Source of the DNA: a virus
Taxonomy: Duplodnaviria > Caudoviricetes
Strand: one strand, 5' to 3'
IMG/VR virus record: IMGVR_UViG_3300032218_002577
Location: 1-29,438 of that record
Length of the DNA: 29,438 nt
Shown here: positions 1 through 27,931 of the stretch, piece by piece
Layout: each line of letters opens with the position of its first letter
How positions within the stretch are numbered: position 1 is the stretch's first letter
The notes under the pieces: model-generated
Database searches by the model: none
The model's input: only the letters and a program-made list of their open reading frames with translations
Told to the model about the DNA's origin: nothing
Position numbers and translations under genes: made by a program

Positions 1-639
1 GAAGATGCTGTTATCAGCATTGCCGACATGCTTACCCGGTCGATTGCGTATCAGTTCGCACGCAATGAGGACCTTGCAGGCTTTCTCGGTGATGGGACCA
101 GCACTTACGGCGCAATCGTCGGGCTTGCAAATGCTCTCGGCTCGGCGTCCAAAGTCACAGCAACCGGCAACACAACCTTCGGTGCGTTGACCATGGCAAA
201 CTTTGAATCTTGCATCGCAATTCGCAAGATGTGGGCGGGATCAACGCCAAGTTGGTACATCTCCCAAGTCGGCTGGGCCAACTCAATGCAAAGATTGATG
301 GATGCCTATTCTGGCAATACCATCATGACCATCTCAGACGGCTCGGCAGGACCTTCGGGAATGCCTCGATTGTCATTCCTTGGCTTTCCGGTTGTCATTA
401 GCCAAGTGCTTGAGTCGAGGTCTTCTGGAACCACCGGAGGTAACGCCTGTTTCTTCGGAGACCTCAACCAAAGCGTGATGATGGGCACGCATAGAGGGCT
501 TTCGGTACAGACCGATCAAAGCCTTTACTTCAATTATGACGCCATCGCAGTGCGTGCAACCGAACGCTTTGACGTTAACGTTCATGATCGAGGCGACTCG
601 ACCAACGCAGGCGGCTTGGTTGCCTTGGTTTTCGGCTAG
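1..639 (+). CDS. Major capsid protein, HK97 fold (5'-truncated by window edge)
   Basis: Frame is open from base 1: EDAVISIADMLTRSIAYQFARNEDLAGFLGDGT, with LGFPVVIS, FFGDL and IAVRATERFD, typical of HK97-family capsid C-terminal halves; followed by a terminator and head-tail genes. Confidence 0.93.
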   Translation, partial: EDAVISIADMLTRSIAYQFARNEDLAGFLGDGTSTYGAIVGLANALGSASKVTATGNTTFGALTMANFESCIAIRKMWAGSTPSWYISQVGWANSMQRLMDAYSGNTIMTISDGSAGPSGMPRLSFLGFPVVISQVLESRSSGTTGGNACFFGDLNQSVMMGTHRGLSVQTDQSLYFNYDAIAVRATERFDVNVHDRGDSTNAGGLVALVFG

Positions 640-663
640 TCCCCTGTTTGCTCCAGTGGGCTT

Positions 664-694
664 GGGGCTATCTCAATCGAGATAGCCCCTTTTT
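664..694 (+). terminator. Rho-independent terminator after capsid gene
   Basis: Perfect 11-bp stem GGGGCTATCTC-aatc-GAGATAGCCCC followed by TTTTT. Confidence 0.85.
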
Positions 695-725
695 AAAAAA
701 CGACAGTCACAAAAAGGAAAATAAA

Positions 726-1145
726 ATGAAATCAAGTCAGTTTGTAGTACGTTCAATTATGCTCGGACCAGTCACTGCGGCCACTACGGCCAGAACAGCC
801 AACCTTGACACTCAAGGGGCAAAATACGCGACCATCGAGGTTGTTTTGGGTGCTCAGCTTAACACCAATGCAACCGCTCCAACGATTTCGATCAGCGAAT
901 CAGATACCACGGTGGCAACGACCTTCGCGACGTTCAACAGTTCGTTTTCAACGAGCCAGGCGAATGTTGCCGCAACGGTTGGAGCGTATCACGTTGATTT
1001 GAAGGGTCGCAAGCGATATTTGCGACTTACTCTGACTCCAGATACAACCACCAACGGGGCTGTGCTTAGTTCCGTTGTTGGAATCCTGGACAAGGAAATC
1101 AGATCAGCCAATAGCGGCAACGCTGATACCGTTGTTGTCGGCTAG
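726..1145 (+). CDS. Thr/Ala-rich beta-strand virion protein, probable capsid decoration/cement protein
   Basis: ATG at 726 after AAGGA; directly downstream of capsid; LDTQG...KRYLRL pattern resembles small jelly-roll decoration proteins. Confidence 0.6.
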   Translation: MKSSQFVVRSIMLGPVTAATTARTANLDTQGAKYATIEVVLGAQLNTNATAPTISISESDTTVATTFATFNSSFSTSQANVAATVGAYHVDLKGRKRYLRLTLTPDTTTNGAVLSSVVGILDKEIRSANSGNADTVVVG

Positions 1146-1168
1146 TTCAAACCACTGGAGCAAAACAG

Positions 1169-1888
1169 ATGGGTCTTATCAAGAACGTCAAAGCATGTGC
1201 GGTGATGACCGCTGGGCGATACGAGAACACTTGGTGTCGCAATCAAATTGAAGCAGCATTGAGGTCTTTGGGCATCCCGTTTACAGTTTCTGGCGGCGTT
1301 TATTATGGCCAATGCATGCAAAAAATGCTCGAATCGGCAATTGAGCAAGGAGTCGAGTACGCTATCACCGTTGACGGGGATAGCGTATTTACCCCAGGTC
1401 AATTGCAGAGGCTTCTAGGTATCGCGGTGCAAGAGTCGCACAAGATCGACGCCATTGCAGCAATGCAAGTGCGAAGAGGCGCAAAAACGATGCTAGGCAC
1501 CATATCAGGCAGGCTATCCGCAGAATGGGACGGTTATCCTCTCAAAGTGGATACCGCTCATTTTGGATTGACGATTATCGACCTAGCAAAGCTTGCCGAC
1601 ACGCCAAAACCTTGGTTTTTTTGTCAACCAGACGTCCAAGGTCAATGGGGCGATGGTCGGATTGATTCCGACGTATGGTTTTGGAAGCAATGGGTCAAGG
1701 CTGGCAACACGATTTACATCGATCCGGGCACTAGGATCGGGCACGTTGAAGAGATGGTTGTCATGCACGATGAAAGCCTTCAAGTAAAACACGTTTACCC
1801 GGCTGACTGGGTGAAAGGAAACTCGGATGTTGACGAAGTTAGTTTTTGTGAGGGCGTGGCGGCGGAAAACACCCGGCTCGACGGTTGA
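1169..1888 (+). CDS. GT-A fold (family 2-like) glycosyltransferase
   Basis: YAITVDGDSVF (DxD motif), HFGLTII and DSDVWFW...AGNTIYIDPGTRIGH, the C-terminal pattern of phage GT2-like enzymes; GGAG RBS. Confidence 0.75.
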   Translation: MGLIKNVKACAVMTAGRYENTWCRNQIEAALRSLGIPFTVSGGVYYGQCMQKMLESAIEQGVEYAITVDGDSVFTPGQLQRLLGIAVQESHKIDAIAAMQVRRGAKTMLGTISGRLSAEWDGYPLKVDTAHFGLTIIDLAKLADTPKPWFFCQPDVQGQWGDGRIDSDVWFWKQWVKAGNTIYIDPGTRIGHVEEMVVMHDESLQVKHVYPADWVKGNSDVDEVSFCEGVAAENTRLDG

Positions 1889-2066
1889 GATTGAAAGCGG
1901 CGTTGCAGATTTGCTCGTAAGGCGAAAGGTTGCGGAATATGTCGATACTCAAGCAAAGACGATTGAGCGCGGAGCTGATAACGGCAGCGACCTCGGAGCC
2001 GTTGACGCTAGACCAAGCCAAGGCTCAGTTAAACATCGCGACAAACAACAACGACCACGACCTTGA
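1827..2066 (+). CDS. Small head-module protein overlapping both neighbours
   Basis: KLVFVRAW...PGSTVEIESGVADLLVRRKVAEYV resembles small proteins often found between capsid and connector genes; AAGGA upstream. Confidence 0.55.
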   Translation: MLTKLVFVRAWRRKTPGSTVEIESGVADLLVRRKVAEYVDTQAKTIERGADNGSDLGAVDARPSQGSVKHRDKQQRPRP

Positions 2067-2526
2067 ACTGTCGGAATTGATCGCGCAAGCAAGGGAACAA
2101 TGGGAAGGCGACACCGATACGGTTTGCTGCACCTCGACTTGGCGAGTGCGAAGCGAGTACATGGAGGACGGTCTAAAGCTTCCAAAGAGGCCGATCCAAT
2201 CCATCGAGTCGATCAAGTATTACGACGGGTCGAATACGCTCCGAACACTGAGTACCGACATCTACAACTTTGACGCGCCGAAACGTGAGATTAGGCGGCA
2301 GTTCCTGAAGGTATTTCCTGTCAGTCTTTATCGATGGGACGCCTGGGAAACGATATATGTTTGCGGTTATTCAAAGGATGGCTCATTGGTTCCGGCAATC
2401 GCTAAACGGGCTATGCTGTTGCTTGTCGGCTATTACTTTGAGCAACGCGGGGACGCTGACAGCCAACACGACCTTAAAGCTTACGAAAAGCTCGTAGCTC
2501 GATTCATGCGAGGCGACTATCCATGA
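1939..2526 (+). CDS. Head-tail connector protein (HK97 gp6 / SPP1 gp15 / phiE125 gp8-like)
   Basis: EPLTLDQAKAQLNI...D.EL..LI..ARE; LPKRPIQSIESIKYYD; VPAIAKRAMLLLVGYYFEQR. Confidence 0.9.
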   Translation: MSILKQRRLSAELITAATSEPLTLDQAKAQLNIATNNNDHDLELSELIAQAREQWEGDTDTVCCTSTWRVRSEYMEDGLKLPKRPIQSIESIKYYDGSNTLRTLSTDIYNFDAPKREIRRQFLKVFPVSLYRWDAWETIYVCGYSKDGSLVPAIAKRAMLLLVGYYFEQRGDADSQHDLKAYEKLVARFMRGDYP

Positions 2527-2867
2527 TCGCAAGGCCAAGAAAATTTTGCGTTGGCTCTATGCGTCATCGCTGCACGATCCAACAACCGACAGAGACGCAA
2601 GACTCAGCGGGCCAGCCGATTGTTACATGGTCGGCATATGTTGCCAACGAGCCTTGCCACTACACGCCAACGGGTGGCTTTGAAGTGATGCGAGGTAAGC
2701 AGTTGGAAGCTCGTACGAAGGCAGTTTTTAGGGTTCGATACAGACCTGGCTACAACGCACAAATGCAGGTGGTTTTCCAAGGTGAAAGCTATGGCATAAT
2801 TGCACTTAATCCGGTCGATGGGCTTATTCGATTTATCGACATCGTTTGTTCGGCGGTGGTTTCATGA
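2523..2867 (+). CDS. Head closure / head-tail adaptor (SPP1 gp16-like)
   Basis: MRHRCTIQQPTETQDSAGQPIVTW and FRVRYRPG...MQVVFQGESYGI; ATGA overlap with connector. Confidence 0.88.
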   Translation: MIARPRKFCVGSMRHRCTIQQPTETQDSAGQPIVTWSAYVANEPCHYTPTGGFEVMRGKQLEARTKAVFRVRYRPGYNAQMQVVFQGESYGIIALNPVDGLIRFIDIVCSAVVS

Positions 2868-3412
2868 GCACATCAATCCAGATTAACGAAGCGCTGATAA
2901 AGGCGGTAGGCGATATTCCGATTACGCTTAGAAATGGGCCGCTAGGACGTTGCCTTGGCTCATTCGCAAAGCCTATCGCACAGACGGCAGGCTCATTGGC
3001 TACATCGTCTAGGGCCACAGGATCGCGGCTCAAGTGGTCGAAGAAATTTAAGAACAATGCCAAGTCCCAAAACGATTCAAAAAAACACTTCGGGCACAAG
3101 GTCCTAAAAAGTGCGGTTGGCGTTCTTGTTGGTGCTACACATCCGCAGGGCAACAAGCAGCAATTCGTCATGCCTGCAAAGCGAGGTCCTAGCTACACCC
3201 GGCACAGTTGGGGCTTAGAGGGCTCAACGATTGTCTATACGAGTCGCAGCGGGAACACATTCACGCGAATAAACAACAGCAAAGCGACTGTAGCCAATTT
3301 CCCACTAGCAGAACGAGCGACGGTAAAGGCTTACCAGCAATCGGGCGGCTCGGCGGAAGCGGCTTTTCTCGACCAGCTAAACAAGGAAATGAAGGAGCTT
3401 CGACTTGGCTAA
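2864..3412 (+). CDS. Basic neck/tail-completion protein (HK97 gp10-like position)
   Basis: Synteny between head closure and tail terminator; basic composition; ATGA overlap. Sequence similarity only weakly recognisable. Confidence 0.55.
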   Translation: MSTSIQINEALIKAVGDIPITLRNGPLGRCLGSFAKPIAQTAGSLATSSRATGSRLKWSKKFKNNAKSQNDSKKHFGHKVLKSAVGVLVGATHPQGNKQQFVMPAKRGPSYTRHSWGLEGSTIVYTSRSGNTFTRINNSKATVANFPLAERATVKAYQQSGGSAEAAFLDQLNKEMKELRLG

Positions 3413-3728
3413 GAATCTAAAGTTGACCGACAAGGTGACGATTTCAAGCGGGACGACATCGACGGCGTTTACGTTGCAGGGAACCATACCGTTAGCAATC
3501 GTCACTCCAGCGGGATTGGCTAGCACGTCGATAACTTTTCAGTGTTCTCTCGACGGTTCAAGCTTTTACGACCTCTACAACGGATCATCGGCGTACTCGC
3601 TAACTGTTGCAGCGTCGCGGTACATCGCACTTAATCCAGACGTTTTTGAAGGCGTACGATACATTCGGATCGTCACAGGTTCAAGCGAAACAAGCAAAGA
3701 CATCTACATTGTCAGCGGGGAGCGGTAA
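3405..3728 (+). CDS. Small Ser/Thr-rich beta-strand virion protein
   Basis: TTG start after AAGGAG; ITFQCSLDGSSFYDL...VRYIRIV pattern similar in style to the 726..1145 product. Confidence 0.6.
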   Translation: MAKNLKLTDKVTISSGTTSTAFTLQGTIPLAIVTPAGLASTSITFQCSLDGSSFYDLYNGSSAYSLTVAASRYIALNPDVFEGVRYIRIVTGSSETSKDIYIVSGER

Positions 3729-3731
3729 ACC

Positions 3732-4148
3732 TTGTCGGCAATCGGCGAAGCACTGAGAACAAAACTGCTGTCCTACTCGACAGTCTCGACGCTAATCGGG
3801 CAGCGAATGTATCCCGATACAGCGGTCGAGGGTGCTACCATTCCGTATATCGTCTACTACGTTAACGGAACCGAACGCGACCACGATCTAGCTGGAGTCG
3901 GCAAAACGGCTCACGCAAGAATAACCGTTGAGGCCTACGCTTTAACTCGCAGGACTTGCAATGCAATCAGCAAGGCAATTCGCGAAACTGGAATATCGGC
4001 ATTTATCGGCACTGTGGACGGCTACGACTTAGACGGCGTAGAGTTTACCGCAGGCGATCAGTATTTGCAGGAACCTCCTACCGATGGAAACCAAGAACAT
4101 CGGTACGTTGTTAGCTTTGACCTCTTGGTTCATTATGGGGAGCCTTAA
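3732..4148 (+). CDS. Tail terminator (DUF3168 / SPP1 gp17-like)
   Basis: LRTKLL...VSTLIGQRMYP...PYIVY...ARITVEAYA; directly upstream of tail tube gene. Confidence 0.85.
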   Translation: MSAIGEALRTKLLSYSTVSTLIGQRMYPDTAVEGATIPYIVYYVNGTERDHDLAGVGKTAHARITVEAYALTRRTCNAISKAIRETGISAFIGTVDGYDLDGVEFTAGDQYLQEPPTDGNQEHRYVVSFDLLVHYGEP

Positions 4149-4150
4149 CT

Positions 4151-4573
4151 ATGGCAGCATTGACGAAAGCACGAACCGGACTTGGGGCGACCATTTCCGG
4201 GACCGGGTTAGTTACTACGCAAATTACTTCAATTGGCGGAATCAAGGTCAGCACTGACGCGCTAAATATTACCACGCTATCAACGACTGGCTTTGAGGAG
4301 CTTCGGCCAAGCGACCTGAGAAAGAATCCAGATTTGCCGGTTGAGTTCAATTGGCTTGGAGCGGCACCACCGATCACTACAGCAATGATTCCATCGGCAG
4401 AGCCTTACGCCGGAATCGCTGTCACGATTACACTCCCAAGTGCGGGCTCAATCCAAGGAACGGCGTTTGTCAAGGAAGTCGAGTTCCCGTCGCTCAAGCA
4501 GGGCGAAATCATGAAGGGTAAGTACGTTCTTCAGTTCGACGGCGACACCGATATCACTTTCACCCCAGCCTAA
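4151..4573 (+). CDS. Major tail (tube) protein
   Basis: 140 aa; ITSIGGIKVSTDALNITTL...FEELRPSDL; GTAFVKEVEF; synteny before chaperone and tape measure. Confidence 0.8.
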   Translation: MAALTKARTGLGATISGTGLVTTQITSIGGIKVSTDALNITTLSTTGFEELRPSDLRKNPDLPVEFNWLGAAPPITTAMIPSAEPYAGIAVTITLPSAGSIQGTAFVKEVEFPSLKQGEIMKGKYVLQFDGDTDITFTPA

Positions 4574-4586
4574 TTAGGAGGCTATT

Positions 4587-4901
4587 TTGTTTTCACTAAA
4601 ACAGCAGTACGGCATCAGCCTATCAACCGGCGAGAATAAGAAACTCAAGCAGTTTCAAATTCTTTTCGCTGGTGCTCTTGTCGGCTATTTGCCGTACGGA
4701 GAAAAAGCTCAGATCCAAGCGATCTTTCAGTTCCCACACGACAAGTTAAACGCAGCAGTACTTGCCAAGCTCGGCAAGGAAGCAGCAGAAGGCCAGGGGC
4801 TTGCCAGCGTAACGGTCGAGGGACCGGAACAGTACTCTCGGCAATTCGTCGAGCAAGTAGAAAAGGCCCTAGCACAAGAGGAGGCAGACGATGACGAGTA
4901 A
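4587..4901 (+). CDS. Hypothetical protein between tail tube and chaperone
   Basis: TTG start with AGGAGG RBS, acidic C-terminus, overlaps next gene. Confidence 0.65.
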   Translation: MFSLKQQYGISLSTGENKKLKQFQILFAGALVGYLPYGEKAQIQAIFQFPHDKLNAAVLAKLGKEAAEGQGLASVTVEGPEQYSRQFVEQVEKALAQEEADDDE

Positions 4902-5250
4902 ACGCGATGCGTTTTTTGCTTTGGCGTCAAGGCCACTTCGAACGACGCAAACGACAATTGACGGCGAGGTGTTTACGCTTCGCGAATTGTCGGAGGCGGA
5001 TGCATCGGAGATGGAAGTTGCGATGCAGTCCAAGGATGGCATATTCGAGTACGCACGGCATCGAATGCTGTTGGTTGCCTATAGCCTCATCGACGACGAT
5101 GGGAATCGCATCGTCGATAACTGGGAGCAACTAAAGCCCGTGCCTAGGTCCATCGTCGGCAAGCTTTATGAGGCTTGCTTGTCGTTGTCGAAATACGACG
5201 AAAGCGAGATAAAAGACCTTGCAAAAAAATCAGAAAGAGCCGACGCCTGA
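4891..5250 (+). CDS. Tail assembly chaperone (lambda gpG-like)
   Basis: GGAGG RBS; FTLRELS, LVAYSLIDDDGNRI, ends LAKKS over a slippery site. Confidence 0.85.
   Translation: MTSKRDAFFALASRPLRTTQTTIDGEVFTLRELSEADASEMEVAMQSKDGIFEYARHRMLLVAYSLIDDDGNRIVDNWEQLKPVPRSIVGKLYEACLSLSKYDESEIKDLAKKSERADA
5223..5229 (+). other. Programmed -1 ribosomal frameshift site (A AAA AAA)
   Basis: GCA AAA AAA TCA in chaperone frame; the -1 frame stays open to 5582. Confidence 0.8.
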
Positions 5251-5582
5251 GAACAGCGTTTAGGCTCTGCGAACGATGGGGAATCGCTGACCCGCTAGGA
5301 TGGCTTGCAAGTCAACCGGCGGGCGTTCTTAATCAGTGGCTAGCATGGGAGACGGTGGAACCGATGGGTGAACAGTGGGCGCAAACCGCGAGGATCCTAG
5401 AAGCCCTGCTATTGCCTATTTACGCCAGAGCGGGCTCGGATGCTCCAAGTGCAAACGACCTTATGCCGGTTCGCTTTAGACGGCCAAAGAAGACGATTGC
5501 AAGCGAGATTAGAGCGGCCATCGAAAACGCCGAATCGATTGGCGATCAACTAAAGGCTTTCGGAACGATGGGAGCGAAGTAG
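5229..5582 (+). CDS. Frameshift extension of tail chaperone (lambda gpT-like part of gpGT)
   Basis: -1 frame ORF without a convincing start of its own; AFRLCERWG...WLAWETVEPMG; ends 2 nt before tape measure. Confidence 0.8.
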   Translation: MRKSRRLRTAFRLCERWGIADPLGWLASQPAGVLNQWLAWETVEPMGEQWAQTARILEALLLPIYARAGSDAPSANDLMPVRFRRPKKTIASEIRAAIENAESIGDQLKAFGTMGAK

Positions 5583-5584
5583 CC

Positions 5585-7522
5585 ATGGCTCAAACGATCA
5601 ACGTTGCGAATATCAAGGTCGGCATGAACGTTGAAGGAGGGGAGTTCCTGCGATCTGAGATCCGCAGCATGAGCACGATACTAAGACAGTCGGAACCGAC
5701 TCTGGATAAGTTCAAAGCTCAAATGGCCGTCTTTGAGCGGGCGCTGCGTGAGGGGGGTATAAGCATCACGCAATTTGTTCAGGCTGAAAACCATCTTATT
5801 GCCAAATACGGCGTTGCGACTCAGCAAACCGATCAGCAGACAGCAGCAACTAAGCGACTAGCACAAGCTAGCCAAGACGCATCTAGCAAGATAAACAACG
5901 AAGCTAGCGCGGTATCGTCACTCAGAAACGCCGCAATGCAATACATTAGCATTGCAGCAGCATTTCAAGCGGTCAAAAAATCAGTCAGCCTTGCTACCGA
6001 GTTAGAATCCACAAAGATTGCTTTTGAGGTGATGACGGGCTCGGCATCGAAGGCGGAGACGCTTATCAAGCAGTTTAAGCGGCTCGATGTTGAAAGCCCG
6101 CTGAACTACTCCGAGTTCGCAAATGCGGGCAAGGTGCTTATGCAATTTGGCGTGAGTGCCAGCGAAGTATCGACGACGATGAATCGACTTGCAGCGGTAT
6201 CGCTTGGCAACTCTGAGCAATTCCAAAGGCTTTCACTTGCCTTCGGTCAAGTCCAGGCCAATGGCCGATTGATGGGGCAAGAAGTACTCCAGATGGTTAA
6301 TAGCGGGTTTAATCCGCTACAGGAAATCAGCCGGACCACTGGGATTAGTATGGTCGAGCTGAAGAAGCGAATGGAAGACGGGCAGATATCCGCCCAGATG
6401 GTCTCGATGGCTTTCAAGACAGCAACGGAAGAGGGCGGGCTGTTCGCTGGAATGAATGAGCGATTGTCTCAGTCAATGGCCGGACAGTTCGCAAAGATGG
6501 AGGGCGATATCAAGGCGGCAGCGATCAGCCTGGGAAATGATTTGATGCCACTCATCAAGGAAACCGTAGGGCTCATTCGCTCAGGCTTTGGGACTTCAGA
6601 GTCGGGCGAACGCGGGCCATTCGCGGCTAATATCAAGGGTATTTCAGATTCATACACTTCGTTGTTTGCTGGAGTCGGCGCAGGATTTCAAACGCTAGGC
6701 CAAAGACTAAGCAAAGGCGACGTAGTATTTGGCACTGGCGAAGCAATGATGGCGGCTTTCAATGGCGTGCTAGATAAGAGCCAAGAAATCAAAGATGCCG
6801 AACTGGATCGCGAAGCGGCATTGATTAGGGCAGCAAACCAGGAAAGCGAAATAGCACAAAAGAAACAAGAGCAAGTTGCCGAAGCTAAAAAGCTAGCGGA
6901 AGCGGAAATGGAACGATCCAGAGCCGACAAAGAGCGACTAGACAAGCTCAAGGCGGAAACTGAGTTTCAGAAAAAGGCGGGTGATGAACTATGGAGCATG
7001 CGCGACCGGCTTAACAAGCTTACGCTAGGCGAGGATGAAGCAAGGCGACAGAAGCAAGCCCGCGAAGGCTACAAGCAGATCGACATCGAGCGATACGACG
7101 CAATGCTCAAGCTCATTGGGGCAGAAGAGGATCGCAAAAAGGCGATGGAAGAATCGCAGGCTATCGAGAAAGAAATGGTATCTGACAAGCAAAAGGCGAT
7201 TGATGAAATTCGCAGGCTTCAAGGGCTTTACGATCAATTGTCGGTCGATCAGAAAACGGGCACGATGGGCCAAGCGAATCTTGCTAAGCAAGAACAGATT
7301 CGGCAGCGATTTGGCGAAAGTCAAAAAACTGAGGATCTCGCCAAGAACCTAGCCCCAGCAATCAAAGCAGGCTCAAAAGAGGCGGCAGCATTCTTGCTCC
7401 AACAAAACGCCGACGCAGCGGAAAAAGCAGAGCGGAAGAAATGGCAATCTGATTTGCTAAGTGAAACACGGCGGGCAAATGAGTTTGCAAAAGAGGCCCC
7501 AAGAATTCAATTTGCGAGGTAG
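5585..7522 (+). CDS. Tape measure protein
   Basis: 645 aa, helical Ala/Glu/Lys-rich; tape-measure domain pattern AFEVMTGS...SPLN...LAFGQVQANGRLMGQEVLQMVNSGFNPLQEIS. Confidence 0.95.
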   Translation: MAQTINVANIKVGMNVEGGEFLRSEIRSMSTILRQSEPTLDKFKAQMAVFERALREGGISITQFVQAENHLIAKYGVATQQTDQQTAATKRLAQASQDASSKINNEASAVSSLRNAAMQYISIAAAFQAVKKSVSLATELESTKIAFEVMTGSASKAETLIKQFKRLDVESPLNYSEFANAGKVLMQFGVSASEVSTTMNRLAAVSLGNSEQFQRLSLAFGQVQANGRLMGQEVLQMVNSGFNPLQEISRTTGISMVELKKRMEDGQISAQMVSMAFKTATEEGGLFAGMNERLSQSMAGQFAKMEGDIKAAAISLGNDLMPLIKETVGLIRSGFGTSESGERGPFAANIKGISDSYTSLFAGVGAGFQTLGQRLSKGDVVFGTGEAMMAAFNGVLDKSQEIKDAELDREAALIRAANQESEIAQKKQEQVAEAKKLAEAEMERSRADKERLDKLKAETEFQKKAGDELWSMRDRLNKLTLGEDEARRQKQAREGYKQIDIERYDAMLKLIGAEEDRKKAMEESQAIEKEMVSDKQKAIDEIRRLQGLYDQLSVDQKTGTMGQANLAKQEQIRQRFGESQKTEDLAKNLAPAIKAGSKEAAAFLLQQNADAAEKAERKKWQSDLLSETRRANEFAKEAPRIQFAR

Positions 7523-7525
7523 TAA

Positions 7526-8404
7526 GTGGCAAACGAAATAGTAGGGACGGAACTTCGCAAAGGATCGGGATATTGCCGAAAGGGAGAGGGCTTTACCCTT
7601 GTATTCGGCGAGACGTGGAACTACCTAGTTAAGACCGATCAAGTTACATCGAGTCGGTATAGCGTCCTCTACGATACTCCAGGATTGCCAAAGGCAGGCT
7701 TGCTCTACGGGCCATTGCAACTAATTTGCGACGAGGTGAGCGGCGACCGCGATGAAGGGCATGCACTTTACTGGCGCATCACAGCGAATTTCAAAACGGG
7801 CCAGGAACAACAAAAGCAGAACTCAGAGCAAAACCCGAACCCGGCAACCTGGATTCCGTTTTTCAAAATTGATTCCTTTCTTACCAAGGAAAAGGTATTG
7901 CCGAAAGATCGATCCGCGACTCCAAAGGCTTGCGTAAACTCAGCGGGCACGCCATTCGATCAGCCATTGGTGACGACCTCTAGTCTTTGCCAGTTTTCGT
8001 TTGTGCAATTCGATAGCCCTTCACTGCTAATGAAGGATTTCTTGGAACGCAACGATACGGTTAATAACGCATCCTTCGACACTGGGCGGGAAGTACTAGC
8101 GGCTCGAACGATGCTCATTGAAGTGCAAGAGGCCGAACTAGGCACGTATGGGGGCTATCAGGCGTGGCGGGCAAAGTACAAGGTAACTTATGACCCGGAC
8201 ACGCACGACGAAAAGCGGGCGGACTTAGGGCCATTCTACCTCGATGCAGCAGACGGCAATAAACGCAAGCGATACATGGACGACACGGAGCATTTTGGAA
8301 TCGTCGGCGCTCTCGATGGATCGGGCGGAAAAACAACCACGCCAGCAGAGCTAAATTTCCGTGCCAAAAAAGAGGCTTCATTCTCGTGGATAAGGATCTC
8401 CTAG
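7526..8404 (+). CDS. Probable minor tail (distal tail/hub position) protein
   Basis: 292 aa directly after tape measure; VNSAGTPFDQP motif; no family recognised with certainty. Confidence 0.55.
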   Translation: MANEIVGTELRKGSGYCRKGEGFTLVFGETWNYLVKTDQVTSSRYSVLYDTPGLPKAGLLYGPLQLICDEVSGDRDEGHALYWRITANFKTGQEQQKQNSEQNPNPATWIPFFKIDSFLTKEKVLPKDRSATPKACVNSAGTPFDQPLVTTSSLCQFSFVQFDSPSLLMKDFLERNDTVNNASFDTGREVLAARTMLIEVQEAELGTYGGYQAWRAKYKVTYDPDTHDEKRADLGPFYLDAADGNKRKRYMDDTEHFGIVGALDGSGGKTTTPAELNFRAKKEASFSWIRIS

Positions 8405-8405
8405 G

Positions 8406-8735
8406 ATGGCCGATGAAACACTCTACGCATTCAATTACTCAGACTCCGAAGCCCTTTTAGCGGGCATTGGAAAGAAACGGCAAGGCGGGCAGATCGCAAG
8501 CGATGCAATCAGCGACAATGCCACCTACATCGGCATCGCAACAACTGCGATCACAGCTAGGAGCGGGACAACCGTCGGAAGCGGGACGGCTCAACTAAAG
8601 TATACCGACAGCAGCAATGTACTTCAAAATCTTTACTCGGTGGCTGTCAACAATGCAGGATCAGCAATCGCAATCGGTGCTTACCTGAAAGTCTTTAGAG
8701 TTGGCAATCGATTTTTTGCAGTGGAGGTGTGCTAA
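8406..8735 (+). CDS. Probable minor tail protein
   Basis: 109 aa, tightly packed; TAITARSGTTVGSGTA beta-rich C-terminal half. Confidence 0.55.
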   Translation: MADETLYAFNYSDSEALLAGIGKKRQGGQIASDAISDNATYIGIATTAITARSGTTVGSGTAQLKYTDSSNVLQNLYSVAVNNAGSAIAIGAYLKVFRVGNRFFAVEVC

Positions 8736-10124
8736 ATGGGATGCTTCGGGAAGTGCGGTTGTCCATGTTGCCTCGACGCTCAAGATATGCCCTTTACAAG
8801 CGTTTCGCTCATTGCCCCTACAGATAACTGCGAAGGAGGATTGGGTGGCTCAGGTGGCGATATTGGGGGCGTTGGCATCGGCGGTGGCGGGATAGGCCAG
8901 CAGTATCCATCGGCTAGCTTTTCGCAAGCCAACTGTTGCTTTGTTGCCAACTTTAATTTGGGTTGCCAGGATTACGTTAAAAACTGCGCGGTGTTGGCAA
9001 CGGTTGATATGGACTATGGGCTAAACCTAGATTACTACCGAAACAAGGCCAGCTATATTCAGCCTGGAGGAACGCCAGATTGCCCTTGCGTCAAAGTGCA
9101 AACAAGCAGGATCGACAGTCATGTCAGGTATAAGGCTTGGTGGCTAGAAAGGCACAAGCTTATCGGAATTCAAATACATGTCGGCAAGGTAAACGTGACT
9201 TGCACTGGCGGGGAGCAAGCTTGCAAATTTTACGTTGCGGCTACTTATGTTTTCGAGACTTGCGAATTCATTTTAGGATGGTCTGGAGGGGCGTCTTTTT
9301 ATCCAGAATATACAGTCGATCACACTTGCACGGGCGTCTATCGCAATGGGACTTGCAGCTACACGGGGACGAGCCAGTCGGCTAGCTCAGTAAACAATTG
9401 CAACGACCTAAAAGCAAGCTTCCCGGATCAGTATTGCACAGCTGGCCAACGAAGGTACTTCAGTCGGATCAAGCTGTACGATACTTTGCCTACCGGACAA
9501 ATAACCATCACGAACGCAGATTTGCCCCCAGTGAGTTGCTGCAATGGCGCGACTGGATGCACAGTGACAGGAAGCCCTTGCGGGCTCAATCTCGATTCAA
9601 ACTGCATGCCGAATCTACCGCAGTTTAGCGATTTGCTTTCTTTGGGTTGTCAGGGATACGCAAATGGGCCAGGCGAACCACCATATCCAGACGGATGCAG
9701 TGTTGTTTCGGGATGCCCTGAAGTGTTGACAAAAACAGCCGAACCCGACGGCATTTGCGAGTACTTTGCATTTGATTCAGCCAGCGGGTGCTATGAGCAA
9801 AAGCAACCGATCAACACAGCCCCAAGACCTGGACGCGATAAGCTGGTTTGCGGCTATTGCGACACTGAAAACGGGCGTACTTACTACGAATATCCTTTCG
9901 AAGAGATTTGCAACGCTGGAAACTTTTTGTGCTTAACGGGTGAATGCTGCTTGTCGCTAGAGGATCGTAACGTGCAGTTTTTGTGCAAAGAGTTTAGCGA
10001 TCCAGATAACTCATTTTGTCGAGTAGACATTTCAAACTATTCTTGCTCAATAGGATCGGTCCAGCATTACACTGCTGGGGCTTTTTGTTACGCACTTCCA
10101 ACAGTGACGATTCAGCTATCATGA
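8736..10124 (+). CDS. Cysteine-rich protein at tail fibre/tip position
   Basis: 462 aa, about 39 Cys by hand count; N-terminal GCFGKCGCPCC and a Gly-rich linker; GGAGG RBS; no signal peptide. Confidence 0.75.
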   Translation: MGCFGKCGCPCCLDAQDMPFTSVSLIAPTDNCEGGLGGSGGDIGGVGIGGGGIGQQYPSASFSQANCCFVANFNLGCQDYVKNCAVLATVDMDYGLNLDYYRNKASYIQPGGTPDCPCVKVQTSRIDSHVRYKAWWLERHKLIGIQIHVGKVNVTCTGGEQACKFYVAATYVFETCEFILGWSGGASFYPEYTVDHTCTGVYRNGTCSYTGTSQSASSVNNCNDLKASFPDQYCTAGQRRYFSRIKLYDTLPTGQITITNADLPPVSCCNGATGCTVTGSPCGLNLDSNCMPNLPQFSDLLSLGCQGYANGPGEPPYPDGCSVVSGCPEVLTKTAEPDGICEYFAFDSASGCYEQKQPINTAPRPGRDKLVCGYCDTENGRTYYEYPFEEICNAGNFLCLTGECCLSLEDRNVQFLCKEFSDPDNSFCRVDISNYSCSIGSVQHYTAGAFCYALPTVTIQLS

Positions 10125-10510
10125 CAGAGCGAACAGTCCCAGTATTTAAACCGGATGGATCGCACAAAGGCGAGTCGATTACGCGAATGCTGTCGTTTTC
10201 AATTATTCAGCTAGTCAATCCTTGGATTGCATTGCATAACGGCTCTATACGCGATGCCATCGGGCTTGCAAACTGGGAATTGACGATTCCCCAATACGAA
10301 TGCAATTGTCGGAGATTCTACGCCGATTGGAAAGCGGCCAACCCCCCTGACTTCACCTTAGCCGAAGCATTCTTCGCATGGGGTGTAGCATTGCACAACG
10401 CGGTGAACGCGAAGCTTGGCAAACCCGAGATCACGATTGAAGAAGCCTATTCCATTTGGAGAAAAACCGATGGCTTGGACGAGCAGGAAAATATCGCGGA
10501 ACGTAGTTGA
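10121..10510 (+). CDS. Erv1/ALR-like FAD-dependent sulfhydryl oxidase (CxC variant)
   Basis: WIALH ... IPQYECNCRRFY ... WGVALHNAVNAKLGKP ... EEAYSIW matches the Erv/ALR W-x-x-L-H and W-x(3-4)-H-N-x-V-N-x-x-L-G-K signatures; ATGA overlap with the Cys-rich gene. Confidence 0.8.
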   Translation: MTERTVPVFKPDGSHKGESITRMLSFSIIQLVNPWIALHNGSIRDAIGLANWELTIPQYECNCRRFYADWKAANPPDFTLAEAFFAWGVALHNAVNAKLGKPEITIEEAYSIWRKTDGLDEQENIAERS

Positions 10511-11363
10511 AATATCCATCGACCTAGTACGCAAAAAGGACTGGGAGCAATGGGTATTGCTTCGGTCGGACGTCCACCATGATAACCCCAAATGCGATCA
10601 AGACCTCGAAAAGCAGCATCTTGATGAGGCTCTTGAGTACGACGCTCCAATCATCGACAACGGCGACCTTTTTTGCGCGATGCAAGGCAAGTGGGACAAG
10701 CGAGCCGACAAGAACGCACTGAGGGAGGAGCATCGAGGATCGAACTACTTCGACCTGCTAGTCGAGACGGCTGCTAATTTCTACCGCCCCTACGGCTCAC
10801 ACTTCGCGGTGCTAGGAAAAGGCAATCACGAGACAGCGGTTACAAGCAGGCACGAGACTGATTTGACCGACCGGCTAGCGTCTAGGATGAGGGCCCACGG
10901 ATCTAATGTTGAAGCAAGTGGCTATGGTGGTTTCGTCATGTTTCGATTTTGCGACCTTGCGTTGAAGGGCAAGAACACAAGCCAACCGAACGCGGTTAAG
11001 GATTCCAAGACGCTCTATCACTTCCACGGGACCGGCGGTGGCGGGCCAGTGACGCGGGGAACGATCCAGACTAATCGAATCTCGGTTTGGTGCCCGGATG
11101 CGGACATCGTGCTAACCGGCCACACGCACGACGAATGGAGCGTGACAATCCCGCGAATGAGGCTCAGTAACCAAGGGGAGATTTGGCAGGATGAACAATT
11201 GCATGTTCGAGCTCCGGGCTACAAAGACGCCTGGGGGGATTCTCACGCAGGGTGGGAAGTGGAGAAAATGCTAGGGCCAAAAGCAATCGGCTCGGCGTGG
11301 TTGCGCTTTTGGTGGGACTGGAGAACGGAACGGGTGAGGATCGATACCGTGAGGGCAAAATAG
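10470..11363 (+). CDS. Calcineurin-like metallophosphoesterase
   Basis: All five motifs present: SDVH, NGDLF, GNHE, FHG, GHTH. Confidence 0.9.
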   Translation: MAWTSRKISRNVVEISIDLVRKKDWEQWVLLRSDVHHDNPKCDQDLEKQHLDEALEYDAPIIDNGDLFCAMQGKWDKRADKNALREEHRGSNYFDLLVETAANFYRPYGSHFAVLGKGNHETAVTSRHETDLTDRLASRMRAHGSNVEASGYGGFVMFRFCDLALKGKNTSQPNAVKDSKTLYHFHGTGGGGPVTRGTIQTNRISVWCPDADIVLTGHTHDEWSVTIPRMRLSNQGEIWQDEQLHVRAPGYKDAWGDSHAGWEVEKMLGPKAIGSAWLRFWWDWRTERVRIDTVRAK

Positions 11364-19115: not shown

Positions 19116-19147
19116 TGTTTTAAGTTTTAATTTTTTTGAGGTTAATC

Positions 19148-21685
19148 ATGAAGTACGATGAGTTTATTCGGTCAAAAATGCCGGTGGTTCAAGACGATGG
19201 GTTTGTCCCTGAGTCCCCCTGTCCCGATTGGTTTAAGCCTCACCAGGTGGTTTGCGTCGATTGGGCGATCAGAAAAGGAAGGGCAGCATTGTTTGAGGCT
19301 TTCGGGCTTGGTAAGACGGTCCAACAGTTGCAGCTAGGGAAATGGATACACGAAAAGACGGGCGGCAAAGTCCTTTTTGTTGCCCCCTTAGGAGTGCGTC
19401 AAGAATTTACCCGCAACGATGGACCAAAGATGGGAATGGAGGTTGTTTATTGCCGGACCGATGCGGAGGTTGATGCTTGCGATTCGCCCTACGTTATCAC
19501 TAACTACGAGCGGGTTCGAGACGGCAATATAGACCCGGCAAAGTTTGAGGGTGCGATGCTCGACGAAGCTAGTTGCTTGCGATCTTACGGGACTAAAACT
19601 ACGCAGCAATTCGCTATGCTATTCAAGCAGATCCCCTATCGGTTTGTTGCAACGGCAACGCCATCGCCTAACGACTTCATCGAGCTTATCAACTACGCCG
19701 ATTTTCTTGGCGTAATGGATCGAGGGCAGGCGATGACTCGATTTTTTCAGCGCGACAGCAAGAAGGCCGGGAACCTTCAGCTGTATCCTCACGAGGTCCA
19801 TCGGTTCTGGTTGTGGGTTGCATCCTGGGCGGCGTTTGTAAACTCTCCGGGGGACCTAGGATTTGACGACGAAGGATACTCGATGCCAGAGTTAAACGTA
19901 CACTGGCACGAGGTCAAAGGCGATCAGGGCCAGCCTGGGGACTACGTCGATAGCAGAGGTAACGCGATGCTATTCCAGCTACCCGGAGGCGGAATCAAGC
20001 ACGTTGCTAAGCAGCGACGGAAAACGAAGGATACTCGCATTGATAAAATGGTCGAGATCGTCCAGCAAGATCCGGATGAGCATTGGCTTGTTTGGCATTA
20101 CCTGGAATCCGAACGCGAAGCGATCCAGAGGGCCATACCGCACAGCAAAGCGGTTTACGGCTCGCAAGAGCTTGACGAGCGGGAACAGATCGTAGGCGAC
20201 TTTGCCGATGGTCGGTTGCAGATCCTAAGCAGCAAGCCTGAGCTGCTTGGTAGCGGTTGCAACTTTCAGAGGCATTGCAATCGAGCAATCTTTATAGGGC
20301 CAACTGACAAGTTCAATGACTTCATTCAGGCGGTGCATAGAATACAGCGATTCATGCAAACCAAAACGGTTGAGGTGCACATCATTTTTGCGGACACGCA
20401 ATTTGATACTGTGATGACTATGCGGAAAAAATGGGAACGCCACAACGAGCTTTCGCAACGTATGCGAGAGATCATCCGAGAGAATGGTTTAACTGGAGAT
20501 CGATTAAAAATGAAATTCCAACGTGGTTTAGGTGTGCCAAGGGTCGAGGTTAGCGGAGATCTTTACAGAGCGATCAATAACGATTGCGTAGCAGAGCTGA
20601 AAGAATGGCCGGATCAGTGCGTAGATGAGATCGTCACCTCGATTCCGTTTAGCGATCACTACGAATACAGCCCGAACCTTAACGACTTTGGCCACAATCA
20701 GGGCGACGATGGATTCTTCGCCCAGTTCGATTTCTTGGTTCCTGAGTTGTGGAGGGTACTCAAAGACGGTCGAGTTGCTTGCATCCATACCAAGGATCGG
20801 ATTCAATACGGCACGATGACGGGAAATGCGATGTACTCAGTCAATGAGTTTAGCGATAAGACTGTGGCGGCGTTCAAGCGGCATGGGTTTATTTACATGG
20901 GCCGGATCGTTATTGATACAGATGTTGTTCGAGAGAACGCGCAGACGTACCGATTAGGCCACACGGAGAATAGCAAAGACTCAACGAAGATGGGATGCGG
21001 CTCGACCGAGTTTGTTTTGTTGTTTCGCAAGTGGGATGCGTCGATGAGTCCGAACCAAACTGCAAACGGCCCGGACCCGGTGACAAAAGACAAGGCGGAA
21101 TACTCGAGGTCTCGATGGCAGATTCACGCTTGCGGGATTTGGCGATCTAGCGGAAACGAACTTGTCTCGCCTGCGATGCTCGAAAGCTTTACGACATCTG
21201 AGGTGTATCATTGGTGGCGTAAATACGCCAAGGAGAATCGGTACAACTACAGAGACCATGTAGCGTTCACGGAGGCGGTTGAAAAGGTTGGTAGGCTTCC
21301 GGCGTCGATGATGCTTTTCGCTCCGGTGTCTAAAAACAAAGACGTTTGGACGGACATTATCAGAATCAAGACGCTCAACACAGAGTTAAGCCGAAAGACT
21401 TCGGAGAATCACGTATGCCCCCTGCAGCTTGACGTTATCGAGCGATTGGTCGAAAGGTACAGCAATCCCGGCGATGTTGTACTTGACCCGTTTGGGGGTG
21501 TTCACTCAACGCCATATCAGGCAATCAAGATGGGACGCAAAGGATGGGGGATTGAGCTAAATCCAGACTATTGGAAATTCGGTGTAGCGTTTTGCGAAAG
21601 AGCGGAAAGGCAAATGACGGCTCCAACGCTGTTTGACCTGACGGAATTAGATACGGTCGACGCCGACGCGGTAACGATTGAATAA
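19148..21685 (+). CDS. SF2 (SNF2-like) helicase - beta-class N4C/N6A DNA methyltransferase fusion
   Basis: Helicase motifs FGLGKT, LDEAS, ATATP, GCNFQ, QAVHRIQRF; MTase motif IV VTSIPF precedes motif I VLDPFGG, with HVCPLQ and GIELNPDY. Confidence 0.9.
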   Translation: MKYDEFIRSKMPVVQDDGFVPESPCPDWFKPHQVVCVDWAIRKGRAALFEAFGLGKTVQQLQLGKWIHEKTGGKVLFVAPLGVRQEFTRNDGPKMGMEVVYCRTDAEVDACDSPYVITNYERVRDGNIDPAKFEGAMLDEASCLRSYGTKTTQQFAMLFKQIPYRFVATATPSPNDFIELINYADFLGVMDRGQAMTRFFQRDSKKAGNLQLYPHEVHRFWLWVASWAAFVNSPGDLGFDDEGYSMPELNVHWHEVKGDQGQPGDYVDSRGNAMLFQLPGGGIKHVAKQRRKTKDTRIDKMVEIVQQDPDEHWLVWHYLESEREAIQRAIPHSKAVYGSQELDEREQIVGDFADGRLQILSSKPELLGSGCNFQRHCNRAIFIGPTDKFNDFIQAVHRIQRFMQTKTVEVHIIFADTQFDTVMTMRKKWERHNELSQRMREIIRENGLTGDRLKMKFQRGLGVPRVEVSGDLYRAINNDCVAELKEWPDQCVDEIVTSIPFSDHYEYSPNLNDFGHNQGDDGFFAQFDFLVPELWRVLKDGRVACIHTKDRIQYGTMTGNAMYSVNEFSDKTVAAFKRHGFIYMGRIVIDTDVVRENAQTYRLGHTENSKDSTKMGCGSTEFVLLFRKWDASMSPNQTANGPDPVTKDKAEYSRSRWQIHACGIWRSSGNELVSPAMLESFTTSEVYHWWRKYAKENRYNYRDHVAFTEAVEKVGRLPASMMLFAPVSKNKDVWTDIIRIKTLNTELSRKTSENHVCPLQLDVIERLVERYSNPGDVVLDPFGGVHSTPYQAIKMGRKGWGIELNPDYWKFGVAFCERAERQMTAPTLFDLTELDTVDADAVTIE

Positions 21686-26441: not shown

Positions 26442-26662
26442 TGCACGGACGTTTAGACCACACGCGAATCAACATCGACGTAAACCGAAATCAAACCGAC
26501 CTCGACCAAGATCCTCGCGGCGACGGGCTATTCTCGTCACAGCAAAAGCCGTGGGCGATCCGTCGAGGAATAGGGCGGGTGATTGTCGGTTGCCTAGCCT
26601 GGGGTGTTTCGGTGTTAACGCTTGGGATCTTTATCGCGGAGAGGCTTTTTGATGCCGATTGA
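26441..26662 (+). CDS. Small protein with C-terminal TM helix
   Basis: GGAGG RBS; VIVGCLAWGVSVLTLGIFIA; overlaps both neighbours. Confidence 0.5.
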   Translation: MHGRLDHTRINIDVNRNQTDLDQDPRGDGLFSSQQKPWAIRRGIGRVIVGCLAWGVSVLTLGIFIAERLFDAD

Positions 26663-27479
26663 TTCCGTTTGGACGGGTTACAATCCAGAGCTTGAGGATC
26701 GGCTGTTTTTACAATCCGGTTCTTACGCTTTGCCCTTCACGCTTAGAGACTACCAAGTCCCAAGCGAGATCGATCCTCGAGCGTTTATCCGCCATGACGA
26801 CCAGGGGAACATGGGAAGCTGCGGCGGGCACGGGAACACGAATACCGCCGAGTATGTTTGGGCACTGGCTTACGGCTCATTTTCAAATGACCGGCAATTC
26901 TCGCGGCTTTTTGCCTACCTCGAAGCTCAGCGATTCGACCGACTATTAGGTCGCGACTCAGGATCTACGATCAGTGGCGGGTTGAAGGTAGCCAAGGAAG
27001 TTGGCTATCTGCCTGAGTCTGAATTGCCTTACCGCACTCCCTACCCGGCGAATGCATCGACACTAATTACCGATGCGATGCGGGCCAAGGCAAGCCCGTA
27101 CAAGATCCGTTCACATACTTGGCTCACGTCTTACGACGAGCTTTTTAAATACTTGTCCAGCGGGGCCGGTGCGGCGTTCGCTGGCACGCTTTGGAATAAT
27201 AGCTTCTACGCAAGTAGCGGCATCTTGGAGAAAGTCTCGCTCAATGGCGGCGGCGGACATGCTTATTGCTTCGCTGGATACTCGACGCGAAAAGACTCGT
27301 CAGGGCGGAACTATATCTGGAGGAAGAATAGCCACAGCAACGACAATTGGACCGAGGTTTCGCCCAAGGTGCTCGATCAGCTGTTCAGGCACAACTACAC
27401 ATCGATTGTTGGGATGAGCGATCTAGCTATTCCAGGGCCGCGCAAGATTTCTTGGATGAAGGATAGGCCATTGGAATGA
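26652..27479 (+). CDS. Papain-like (clan CA, C1-type) cysteine peptidase
   Basis: DQGNMGSC (oxyanion Gln, catalytic Cys), FSRLFAY, DSGSTI..G, GGHAYCFAGY (His), KNSH (Asn). Confidence 0.85.
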   Translation: MPIDSVWTGYNPELEDRLFLQSGSYALPFTLRDYQVPSEIDPRAFIRHDDQGNMGSCGGHGNTNTAEYVWALAYGSFSNDRQFSRLFAYLEAQRFDRLLGRDSGSTISGGLKVAKEVGYLPESELPYRTPYPANASTLITDAMRAKASPYKIRSHTWLTSYDELFKYLSSGAGAAFAGTLWNNSFYASSGILEKVSLNGGGGHAYCFAGYSTRKDSSGRNYIWRKNSHSNDNWTEVSPKVLDQLFRHNYTSIVGMSDLAIPGPRKISWMKDRPLE

Positions 27480-27931
27480 ATGAAAGGTCTTTAGGTATGG
27501 CTTTACTTGTTATCGCTGGATTGTTTTGGTGGATGGCTCCGGCAGTCAAGCATAATCCTACGCAATGCGATATTACACCAGATTCATCGGCGTTGATCGA
27601 GGAATTGGCAACCGTCCAAAAATCCTGGATAGTTCAGCCGGATCATATTCCTGACGGCACGAAAATGATTGAACCACAGCCAAGCCCAAGCGACAAGCCA
27701 CACGAAAAGCAAAAACGTGAGTTGCTCATTTTCGTCTCCAAGAACTGCCCGCCATGCGAAAGATGGAAGCGTTGCGAAATGCAAAAGTTCATGGATTCAG
27801 GGTGGACGGTGGGAATTGTCGAGGTTCATTCCTACGGACTTACGCCGACTTTTGAGATCGAAGCAAACGGCAAGAATCAGACGCTAAAAGGCTATGCGTC
27901 GTTTGAACAGATCGTGGAGGCGATGCGATGA
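27476..27931 (+). CDS. Membrane-anchored/exported thioredoxin-fold protein (CPPC)
   Basis: N-terminal hydrophobic segment, Pro-rich linker, LLIFVSKNCPPCERWK, cis-Pro motif TPTF, LKGY. Confidence 0.8.
   Translation: MNERSLGMALLVIAGLFWWMAPAVKHNPTQCDITPDSSALIEELATVQKSWIVQPDHIPDGTKMIEPQPSPSDKPHEKQKRELLIFVSKNCPPCERWKRCEMQKFMDSGWTVGIVEVHSYGLTPTFEIEANGKNQTLKGYASFEQIVEAMR

Follow-up and report, generated by a model that had tools for sequence, protein, structure and literature searches.

An Erv/ALR-like gene with a CxC dithiol lies beside cysteine-rich tail-end genes in tailed phages, probably of planctomycetes

Gene order at the tail end of the record

The DNA analysed here (the window, that is the whole stretch of 29,438 nucleotides) is the 29.4-kb Caudoviricetes virus record IMGVR_UViG_3300032218_002577, in which Pfam and PHROG matches place genes for the capsid, head-tail connectors, tail terminator, tail chaperones and tape measure all within positions 1-7522, a set like that of long-tailed phages. 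The tape measure gene is followed, in order, by a 292-aa gene, a 109-aa gene, a 462-aa gene encoding 39 Cys and a 129-aa Erv/ALR-like gene, and it is the identity of the tape measure protein that leads us to read this following module as tail genes. The features are:

5585-7522, plus strand: tape measure protein (Pfam TMP_3, E 2e-20; PHROG tape measure, E 5e-39)
7526-8404, plus strand: conserved 292-aa gene after the tape measure gene, a distal-tail protein by position only
8406-8735, plus strand: 109-aa gene whose C-terminal residue, Cys109 (codon 8730-8732), is invariant; a proposed adaptor
8736-10124, plus strand: 462-aa, 39-Cys protein in a single ORF, proposed substrate
10121-10510, plus strand: 129-aa Erv/ALR-like flavoprotein homologue with a CxC dithiol (Pfam, profile and fold matches, dN/dS)
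10223-10237, plus strand: W35-x-x-L-H39, first flavin-pocket motif, aligning with W-x-x-L-H of ALR
10301-10309, plus strand: Cys61-Asn-Cys63 dithiol, Cys63 aligning with the second Cys of the ALR CxxC
10394-10426, plus strand: H92NAVNAKLGKP102, second flavin-pocket motif, aligning with HNEVNRKLGKP of ALR

An earlier note on this DNA had placed the Cys-rich gene last in the tail run, with its stop overlapping the next start, and both points hold: the head and tail genes listed above precede it, and the TGA of the 462-aa ORF (10122-10124) overlaps the Erv-like ATG at 10121 (ATGA), while on its other side the TAA of the 109-aa gene abuts its ATG. The approximate count of 39 Cys given there is exact (8.4% of the residues), and no other ORF exceeds 3.5% Cys among 46 selected plus-strand ORFs of the record. 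As that note also stated, no signal peptide is apparent, as judged by Kyte-Doolittle hydropathy only: the 462-aa and 129-aa proteins lack a hydrophobic N-terminal stretch, the 19-residue maxima near the N-terminus being 0.85 and 1.25 for the module proteins versus 1.98 for a signal-anchored ORF at 27476. The 292-aa protein has no Pfam or PHROG match, none of the 292-, 109- and 462-aa families has a sequence match in the PDB, and an ESM Atlas search with the 109-aa protein returned unnamed viral clusters only.

Other genes of the window were recorded in passing. Two overlapping tail-chaperone ORFs (4891-5250 and 5175-5582) precede the tape measure gene in the arrangement of a programmed frameshift, and a 239-aa gene among the head genes (1169-1888) has a DGD motif and is glycosyltransferase-like by eye, with a weak PHROG match and function unknown. 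A phosphoesterase-like gene (10416-11363; PHROG DNA repair exonuclease, E 3e-9) overlaps the 3' end of the Erv-like gene and comes after Erv in most close relatives, and an 849-aa fusion (19136-21685) joins an SNF2-type helicase to an N6/N4 DNA methylase. Promoter-like sites were at chance level (5 versus 4.3), and no RNA holder was found in 8400-10510.

The Erv/ALR-like protein and its cysteine-rich neighbours

The motifs from which the 129-aa protein had been read as an Erv/ALR oxidase, W35-IA-L38-H39, C61-N-C63 and H92NAVNAKLGKP102, are all present in its translation. The family assignment stands on Pfam, profile and predicted fold, with the exception that the CxxC signature of the family is missing and the active site is CxC. 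The protein matches Pfam Evr1_Alr (PF04777) with 31.6 bits against a cut-off of 27.6, over profile positions 37-92 of 93, and a 132-sequence profile of its family matched 18 PDB sequences, all of them Erv, ALR or QSOX (best E 3e-15, to ALR). Its predicted model (five helices, pLDDT 80) matches the Erv helical-bundle fold: structure alignment with VIA gave Z 8.7-10.3 to 15 Erv/ALR entries, the best being ASFV pB119L (Z 10.3, rmsd 2.1 A over 84 residues), and the best 21 ranks listed by Foldseek are Erv/ALR with probability 1.00, though with E > 0.001. In Erv/ALR enzymes the residues of the W-x3-H and H-N-x2-N motifs have a role in FAD binding. In this family W35, H39, H92, N93 and N96 are conserved and aligned to ALR, the W and H of the first motif being kept in 120/121 close homologues; the family consensus also has a Gly at the fourth position ahead of the Trp, which the 129-aa protein lacks. 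The median dN/dS is 0.16 (47 unsaturated of 66 pairs), and the core of the protein evolves, as judged from these sequences, under purifying selection.

Searches among 1.84 billion representatives retrieved 623 proteins at E 1e-10 or better, a set that includes canonical Erv proteins. By tblastn, 50,697 annotated phage records gave one weak match only, in a 620-kb record that we take for a giant virus filed under phages. A quick tree of 110 columns separated a phage-type group (74 rows) from a mostly giant-virus group (50) with an SH-aLRT of 84. Four homologues (P0217, P0249, P0253, P0239) have two tandem Erv domains, the second domain of P0217 being without the dithiol.

The co-occurrence of phage Erv homologues with Cys-rich genes is borne out by three sets of loci, anchored on the Erv protein, on the 292-aa gene and on a sequence pattern. 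The Erv-protein search gave 36 viral loci, 35 of which have a 31-48-Cys gene directly upstream, the 36th being incomplete. With the 292-aa gene as a neutral anchor (66 viral loci), 39 loci reach far enough and both genes are present in 39/39. A scan for the CxC pattern yielded 120 stretches, 80 of them with flanks and 65 with a true Erv match and enough upstream DNA; several viral matches and 5/9 genome matches to the pattern were chance and were removed by HMM score. A partner of >= 5.5% Cys lies upstream of Erv in 57/65 of these loci versus 1/309 background ORFs, the loci being redundant in that 43/65 fall in one Erv cluster; counted by Erv cluster at 60% identity, the linkage is seen in 10/16, or in 10/13 without the giant-virus-like clusters. 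Of the eight exceptions, five resemble giant viruses in their record name, neighbours or clustering. L104 and L146 are phage-like loci with no 5.5%-Cys partner. In the mostly giant-virus CxxC set, a Cys-rich partner is found in only 3/70.

The partners fall into seven groups without BLAST links that occupy the same slot and have an N-terminal cysteine cluster in common, and they appear to be exchangeable: at one locus (L038) the 292-aa gene is 94% identical, the partner is of a different subfamily and Erv is still next. There is also one natural fusion (P0204, a singleton on two contigs) in which a 23-Cys domain is followed by a CxC Erv domain. In many long homologues Erv is fused to glycosyltransferases and not to a Cys-rich domain. 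Some of these (P0212, P0222, P0259, P0272, and the loci L226, L227, L179) have Erv fused N-terminally to glycosyltransferase or sulfotransferase domains; among the 25 long homologues scanned with Pfam, the GT4 call is above cut-off in 4 and GT8 is weak. The fusions and the glycosyltransferase neighbours suggest a virion-modification cassette.

In regards to the host, a genome scan gave true Erv matches in a Pirellula MAG, a Planctomycetota MAG and a short contig of a Nitrosomonas MAG. A loose search, which may miss copies, found Erv in 5/401 genomes of the Pirellula MAG's family and in 1/401 genomes of a sample of the phylum. Eight Erv regions from four further genomes of that family lie in prophage-like tail gene runs, and in all eight a gene with 16-22 Cys precedes Erv, either directly or with one gene in between; in 6/8 the order is a tape measure-like gene, a 292-aa homologue, one or more small genes, the Cys-rich gene and Erv, and in 5 of those 6 the gene just before the partner has a Cys <= 4 residues from its end. 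Three of the eight Erv copies are CxC and five are CxxC. A 2023 survey (PMC10598087 section 16) assigns Erv1/Alr to eukaryotes and giant viruses, with only isolated entries from bacteria, including Pirellula; our regions suggest that the planctomycete entries are prophage tail genes, and a planctomycete is the likely host of the phage.

The claim of the earlier note that the phage carries its own disulfide catalyst for the Cys-rich protein is partly supported by this linkage, with the qualification that the dependence runs one way. The 292-aa family occurs at 126 places in 85/401 genomes of the Pirellula MAG's family. From 120 of these not already known we fetched 60, from the upper part of the list, and none had an Erv match within the stretch read. 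In the 50 Erv-less loci with at least 2.7 kb downstream, the best 200-aa window has a median of 9 Cys versus 11 in nine Erv loci (p 0.23), a comparison to be read knowing that the nine are non-independent (two genomes and near-copies) and that wrong frames in GC-rich DNA may inflate some Erv-less values. The tail ends of these Erv-less relatives are thus equally Cys-dense, so that Erv is not generally required and Cys density is a trait of the phage group; an obligate dependence of partner on Erv is rejected by the same 50 loci.

In 14/50 of the Erv-less loci, versus 1/212 redundant Erv loci, about the slot of Erv is taken by a small helical protein or domain with G-x-G...CxC or CxxC and then a helix, found with a profile seeded from nine such sequences (L256:2966-3493, L299:3141-4016, L304:2982-3515, L309:3021-4286). 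It has no Pfam match and a weak one to phrog_32048, and it is a candidate for an unrelated disulfide catalyst. Glycosyltransferase genes follow the Erv-less tail ends too. Some of the tail-end proteins there (L256, L274, L294, L299, L304) contain very long stretches of Ser or Ser-Gly that separate their cysteine clusters, and are often followed by glycosyltransferases; they are possibly mucin-like glycosylated fibres.

It could then be that the disulfides are real but form independently of Erv, by air oxidation after lysis or by host systems, and that Erv travels as a non-essential accessory in a mobile cassette at the tail end, or has other targets such as glycosylation partners or host thiols. 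The Erv-less prophages and the frequent Erv-glycosyltransferase fusions speak for this, as do disulfide-rich virions described with no phage oxidase in the portions of the reports available (crAss001, PMC10172136; Jabs, PMC13419713). Against it, the slot is kept behind exchanged partners, as at L038, Erv is retained in all 39 close relatives and is under purifying selection, and the P0204 fusion has a Cys-rich domain and Erv in one chain. We consider this explanation unlikely, but it deserves a serious hearing.

The CxC dithiol and the cysteines of the partner

Both cysteines of the C61-N-C63 dithiol are invariant in 121/121 close homologues, and of 151 representatives examined 129 are CxC, 15 CxxC and 7 other (2 of these being false matches). 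Since section 16 of the survey gives C-X-X-C as the Erv1/Alr active-site signature (PMC10598087), the 129-aa protein is filed here as a non-canonical, Erv-like variant. The second Cys stands 23 positions from the conserved Trp in 87 CxC and 13 CxxC homologues, and C63, where a predicted helix begins, lines up with the second cysteine of the ALR CxxC; the equal spacing indicates that Cys63 is the conserved and probably flavin-proximal cysteine, and that the loop before it was remodelled. The loop reads Pro-x3-Cys-x-Cys in 103 of the 151 representatives, Pro-x2-Cys-x-Cys in 20 and Pro-Cys-x-x-Cys in 14. CxC Erv genes also occur on giant-virus-like contigs (L114, L124, L115, L127, L147). In the quick tree L114 lies within the phage-type group and L127 among the giant-virus CxxC forms, so that the CxC form either has several origins or has passed from one virus group to another. 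A literature search at the level of listings found no published case of a working CxC Erv active site.

This remodelled loop also speaks for a different activity, in which the CxC protein is a flavin-linked reductase, isomerase or chaperone and the thiols of the partner are held reduced or reshuffled until assembly. A disulfide in a smaller ring should also differ in redox potential. The cytoplasm, however, already keeps thiols reduced, and Pfam shows no NAD(P)H-binding domain in the 129-aa protein. Furthermore, CxC and CxxC forms share the slot behind the same kind of partner, which suggests that they do the same job, and we regard a reductase or isomerase as improbable.

As for the partner, the earlier note had preferred disulfides to metal ligands, and for most of the cysteines parity, paired loss and spacing in the sequences agree with that preference. 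Partner Cys counts range from 17 to 43 and are odd in 32/39 representatives at 70% identity (p 7e-5), even in 7/39, and odd in 24/31 at 50% identity (p 0.003), p values that overstate independence since parity is inherited and they are not corrected for descent. For the control residues W, H, Y, F, M and P, odd counts occur in 15-20 of the 39. Within the window's subfamily (n=28) the count is 39 in 13, 37 in 11, 35 in 2, 41 in 1 and 40 in 1, so the number of Cys appears to change in steps of two; a Cys stands at position 3 or at position 8 and never at both (12 and 16 of 28), and C198 and C392 are jointly lost in 2/28. Five Cys fall within the first 18 residues in 33/39 partners. The odd cysteine has a possible counterpart, as the gene before the partner has a Cys in its last three residues in 49/57 loci versus 12/551 background ORFs, C109 of the 109-aa protein being invariant in 18/18 aligned. 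The simplest reading that fits is one of paired intrachain disulfides and one bond to the upstream terminal Cys. The parity, CxxC-depletion and terminal-Cys results are new in the present analysis.

Some known tail-tip proteins bind Zn or Fe-S through cysteines, and the partner might do the same, its adjacency to Erv being unrelated to folding. Cysteines crowd the N-terminal cluster (C3, C7, C9, C11, C12) closely enough that it could bind a metal, and directly adjacent cysteines (CC) are commoner than in shuffled sequences (172 versus 105 +/- 9). Beyond residue 20, however, the CxxC enrichment of Zn or Fe-S proteins is absent from the 39 representatives, in which CxxC is depleted (51 observed versus 80 +/- 9 shuffled) and CxxxC as well (25 versus 80); His makes up 0.8% of the Cys-rich partner, and the stepping of the counts in twos is likewise against metal, which leaves this explanation very little room.

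The 462-aa protein itself begins with the five-Cys cluster and continues with a Gly-rich linker. Its AlphaFold2 model (pLDDT 82, pTM 0.72) is all-beta with very long hairpins, including predicted strands of 24 and 38 residues, and it has no fold match in PDB Foldseek, viral models, ESM Atlas or VIA wide, where the best Z is 4.6 among 48,161 chains. The earlier description of it as a tail-tip or receptor-binding protein rests on gene position, and the protein has no counterpart in sequence or whole-protein fold among known tail or receptor-binding proteins; a tail-tip subunit is what we would predict from that position. A complete 41-kb relative has no second large Cys-rich gene (in 40 of 41.3 kb read, on one strand), and its other large unassigned genes could be its fibres. 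That the protein is instead a disulfide-restrained delivery or membrane-piercing protein, its long hairpins joining into a barrel, hardly merits belief, since the strand lengths and the pore-form perforin-2 and membrane attack complex at Foldseek ranks 2 and 3 are offset by the non-significance of those matches (E 0.005-0.009, TM 0.11-0.13), by the low best VIA Z and by the fact that long hairpins resemble one another by shape alone.

Proposed mechanism and comparison with known systems

Our preferred reading, held with a confidence somewhat above even, is that the partner acquires its disulfides before lysis from a flavin-linked oxidase co-translated with it, which also links it to the upstream protein; it is likely that the CxC Erv-fold protein binds FAD and oxidises the 39-Cys protein in the host cytoplasm. 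In the presumed planctomycete host, the overlapping stop and start would couple translation, such that the oxidase is made beside its substrate. By analogy with compact viral Erv enzymes lacking a shuttle pair, Cys61 would attack substrate thiols and Cys63 would hand the electrons to FAD and then to O2. Thirty-eight of the 39 cysteines could form about 19 intrachain disulfides, and the remaining one, which most likely belongs to the five-Cys cluster at the N-terminus, would bond to Cys109 of the 109-aa protein and lock the exchangeable 462-aa subunit onto the tail. Erv would not be the sole solution, related prophages putting other proteins in the slot.

A wider picture can be offered tentatively, with a confidence clearly below even. 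Planctomycete phages would practise their own cytoplasmic oxidative folding, using a large undescribed clade of CxC Erv proteins to make some 19 disulfides in a tail-tip protein that is exchangeable and has a new fold, and that is then stapled on through the C-terminal Cys of its neighbour; the slot would be a cassette for protein modification, open also to glycosyltransferases or to another small dithiol catalyst unrelated to Erv, and genes would have passed between the clade and giant viruses.

Large DNA viruses of eukaryotes are known to encode their own disulfide formation; in one of them, vaccinia, E10R, A2.5L and G4L form a disulfide relay pathway. E10R has a role in vaccinia morphogenesis, and no phages are among the Erv1/Alr holders named in that same part of the survey (PMC10598087 section 16). 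Our literature search, which covered titles and abstract openings and left most subscription papers and all supplements outside it, found no published example of a phage Erv. The vaccinia relay resembles the phage system as a virus-coded route to virion disulfides, and the phage too has a thioredoxin-like gene with CPPC (27476-27931; weak Pfam, E 0.005), behind a papain-like peptidase gene (26622-27479). This gene, however, encodes a hydrophobic anchor at the N-terminus, is 17 kb distant and is found in only 12/25 Erv-bearing records (with CPPC in 8/12 loci), and we rejected it as a shown relay partner.

The closest likeness is to ASFV pB119L (PDB 3gwl), which is the best structural match, is similarly small with one dithiol and no shuttle pair and, like other NCLDV Erv oxidases, has a proposed role in forming the disulfides of virion proteins in the cytoplasm; compact viral Erv enzymes of this single-dithiol kind have been described (PMC3509050). 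The phage protein differs from pB119L in its CxC with a longer Pro-to-Cys loop, in having about 12 fewer residues between its first and second helices, and in that its gene stands directly behind that of the proposed substrate, in a tailed bacteriophage. The best sequence matches are to ALR, Erv1 and Erv2 (PDB 3o55, 1oqc, 2hj3, 3w4y, 1jr8), with which it shares W-x-x-L-H and HN-x-VN-x-x-LGKP; unlike them it has only two cysteines, with no shuttle or structural disulfide, and no compartment-targeting sequence is seen in it. On the side of the substrate, inter-subunit disulfides in phage tails are established in crAss001 (PMC10172136) and in mycobacteriophage Jabs (PMC13419713), whose virion has about 1,700 disulfides. 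No catalyst is named in the accessible parts of these two reports, and the word 'oxidase' is absent from that of the crAss001 tail paper, whereas here a candidate catalyst gene adjoins that of the proposed substrate. If active, the enzyme would explain how some phages obtain heavily disulfide-bonded virion parts, would show that an Erv active site works as CxC, and would make available a cytoplasmic oxidase adapted to bacteria, together with a natural test substrate of 39 cysteines. The pairing of Erv with a Cys-rich tail-end gene is real and widespread, and would carry an already known viral strategy, in modified form, into a new kind of virus.
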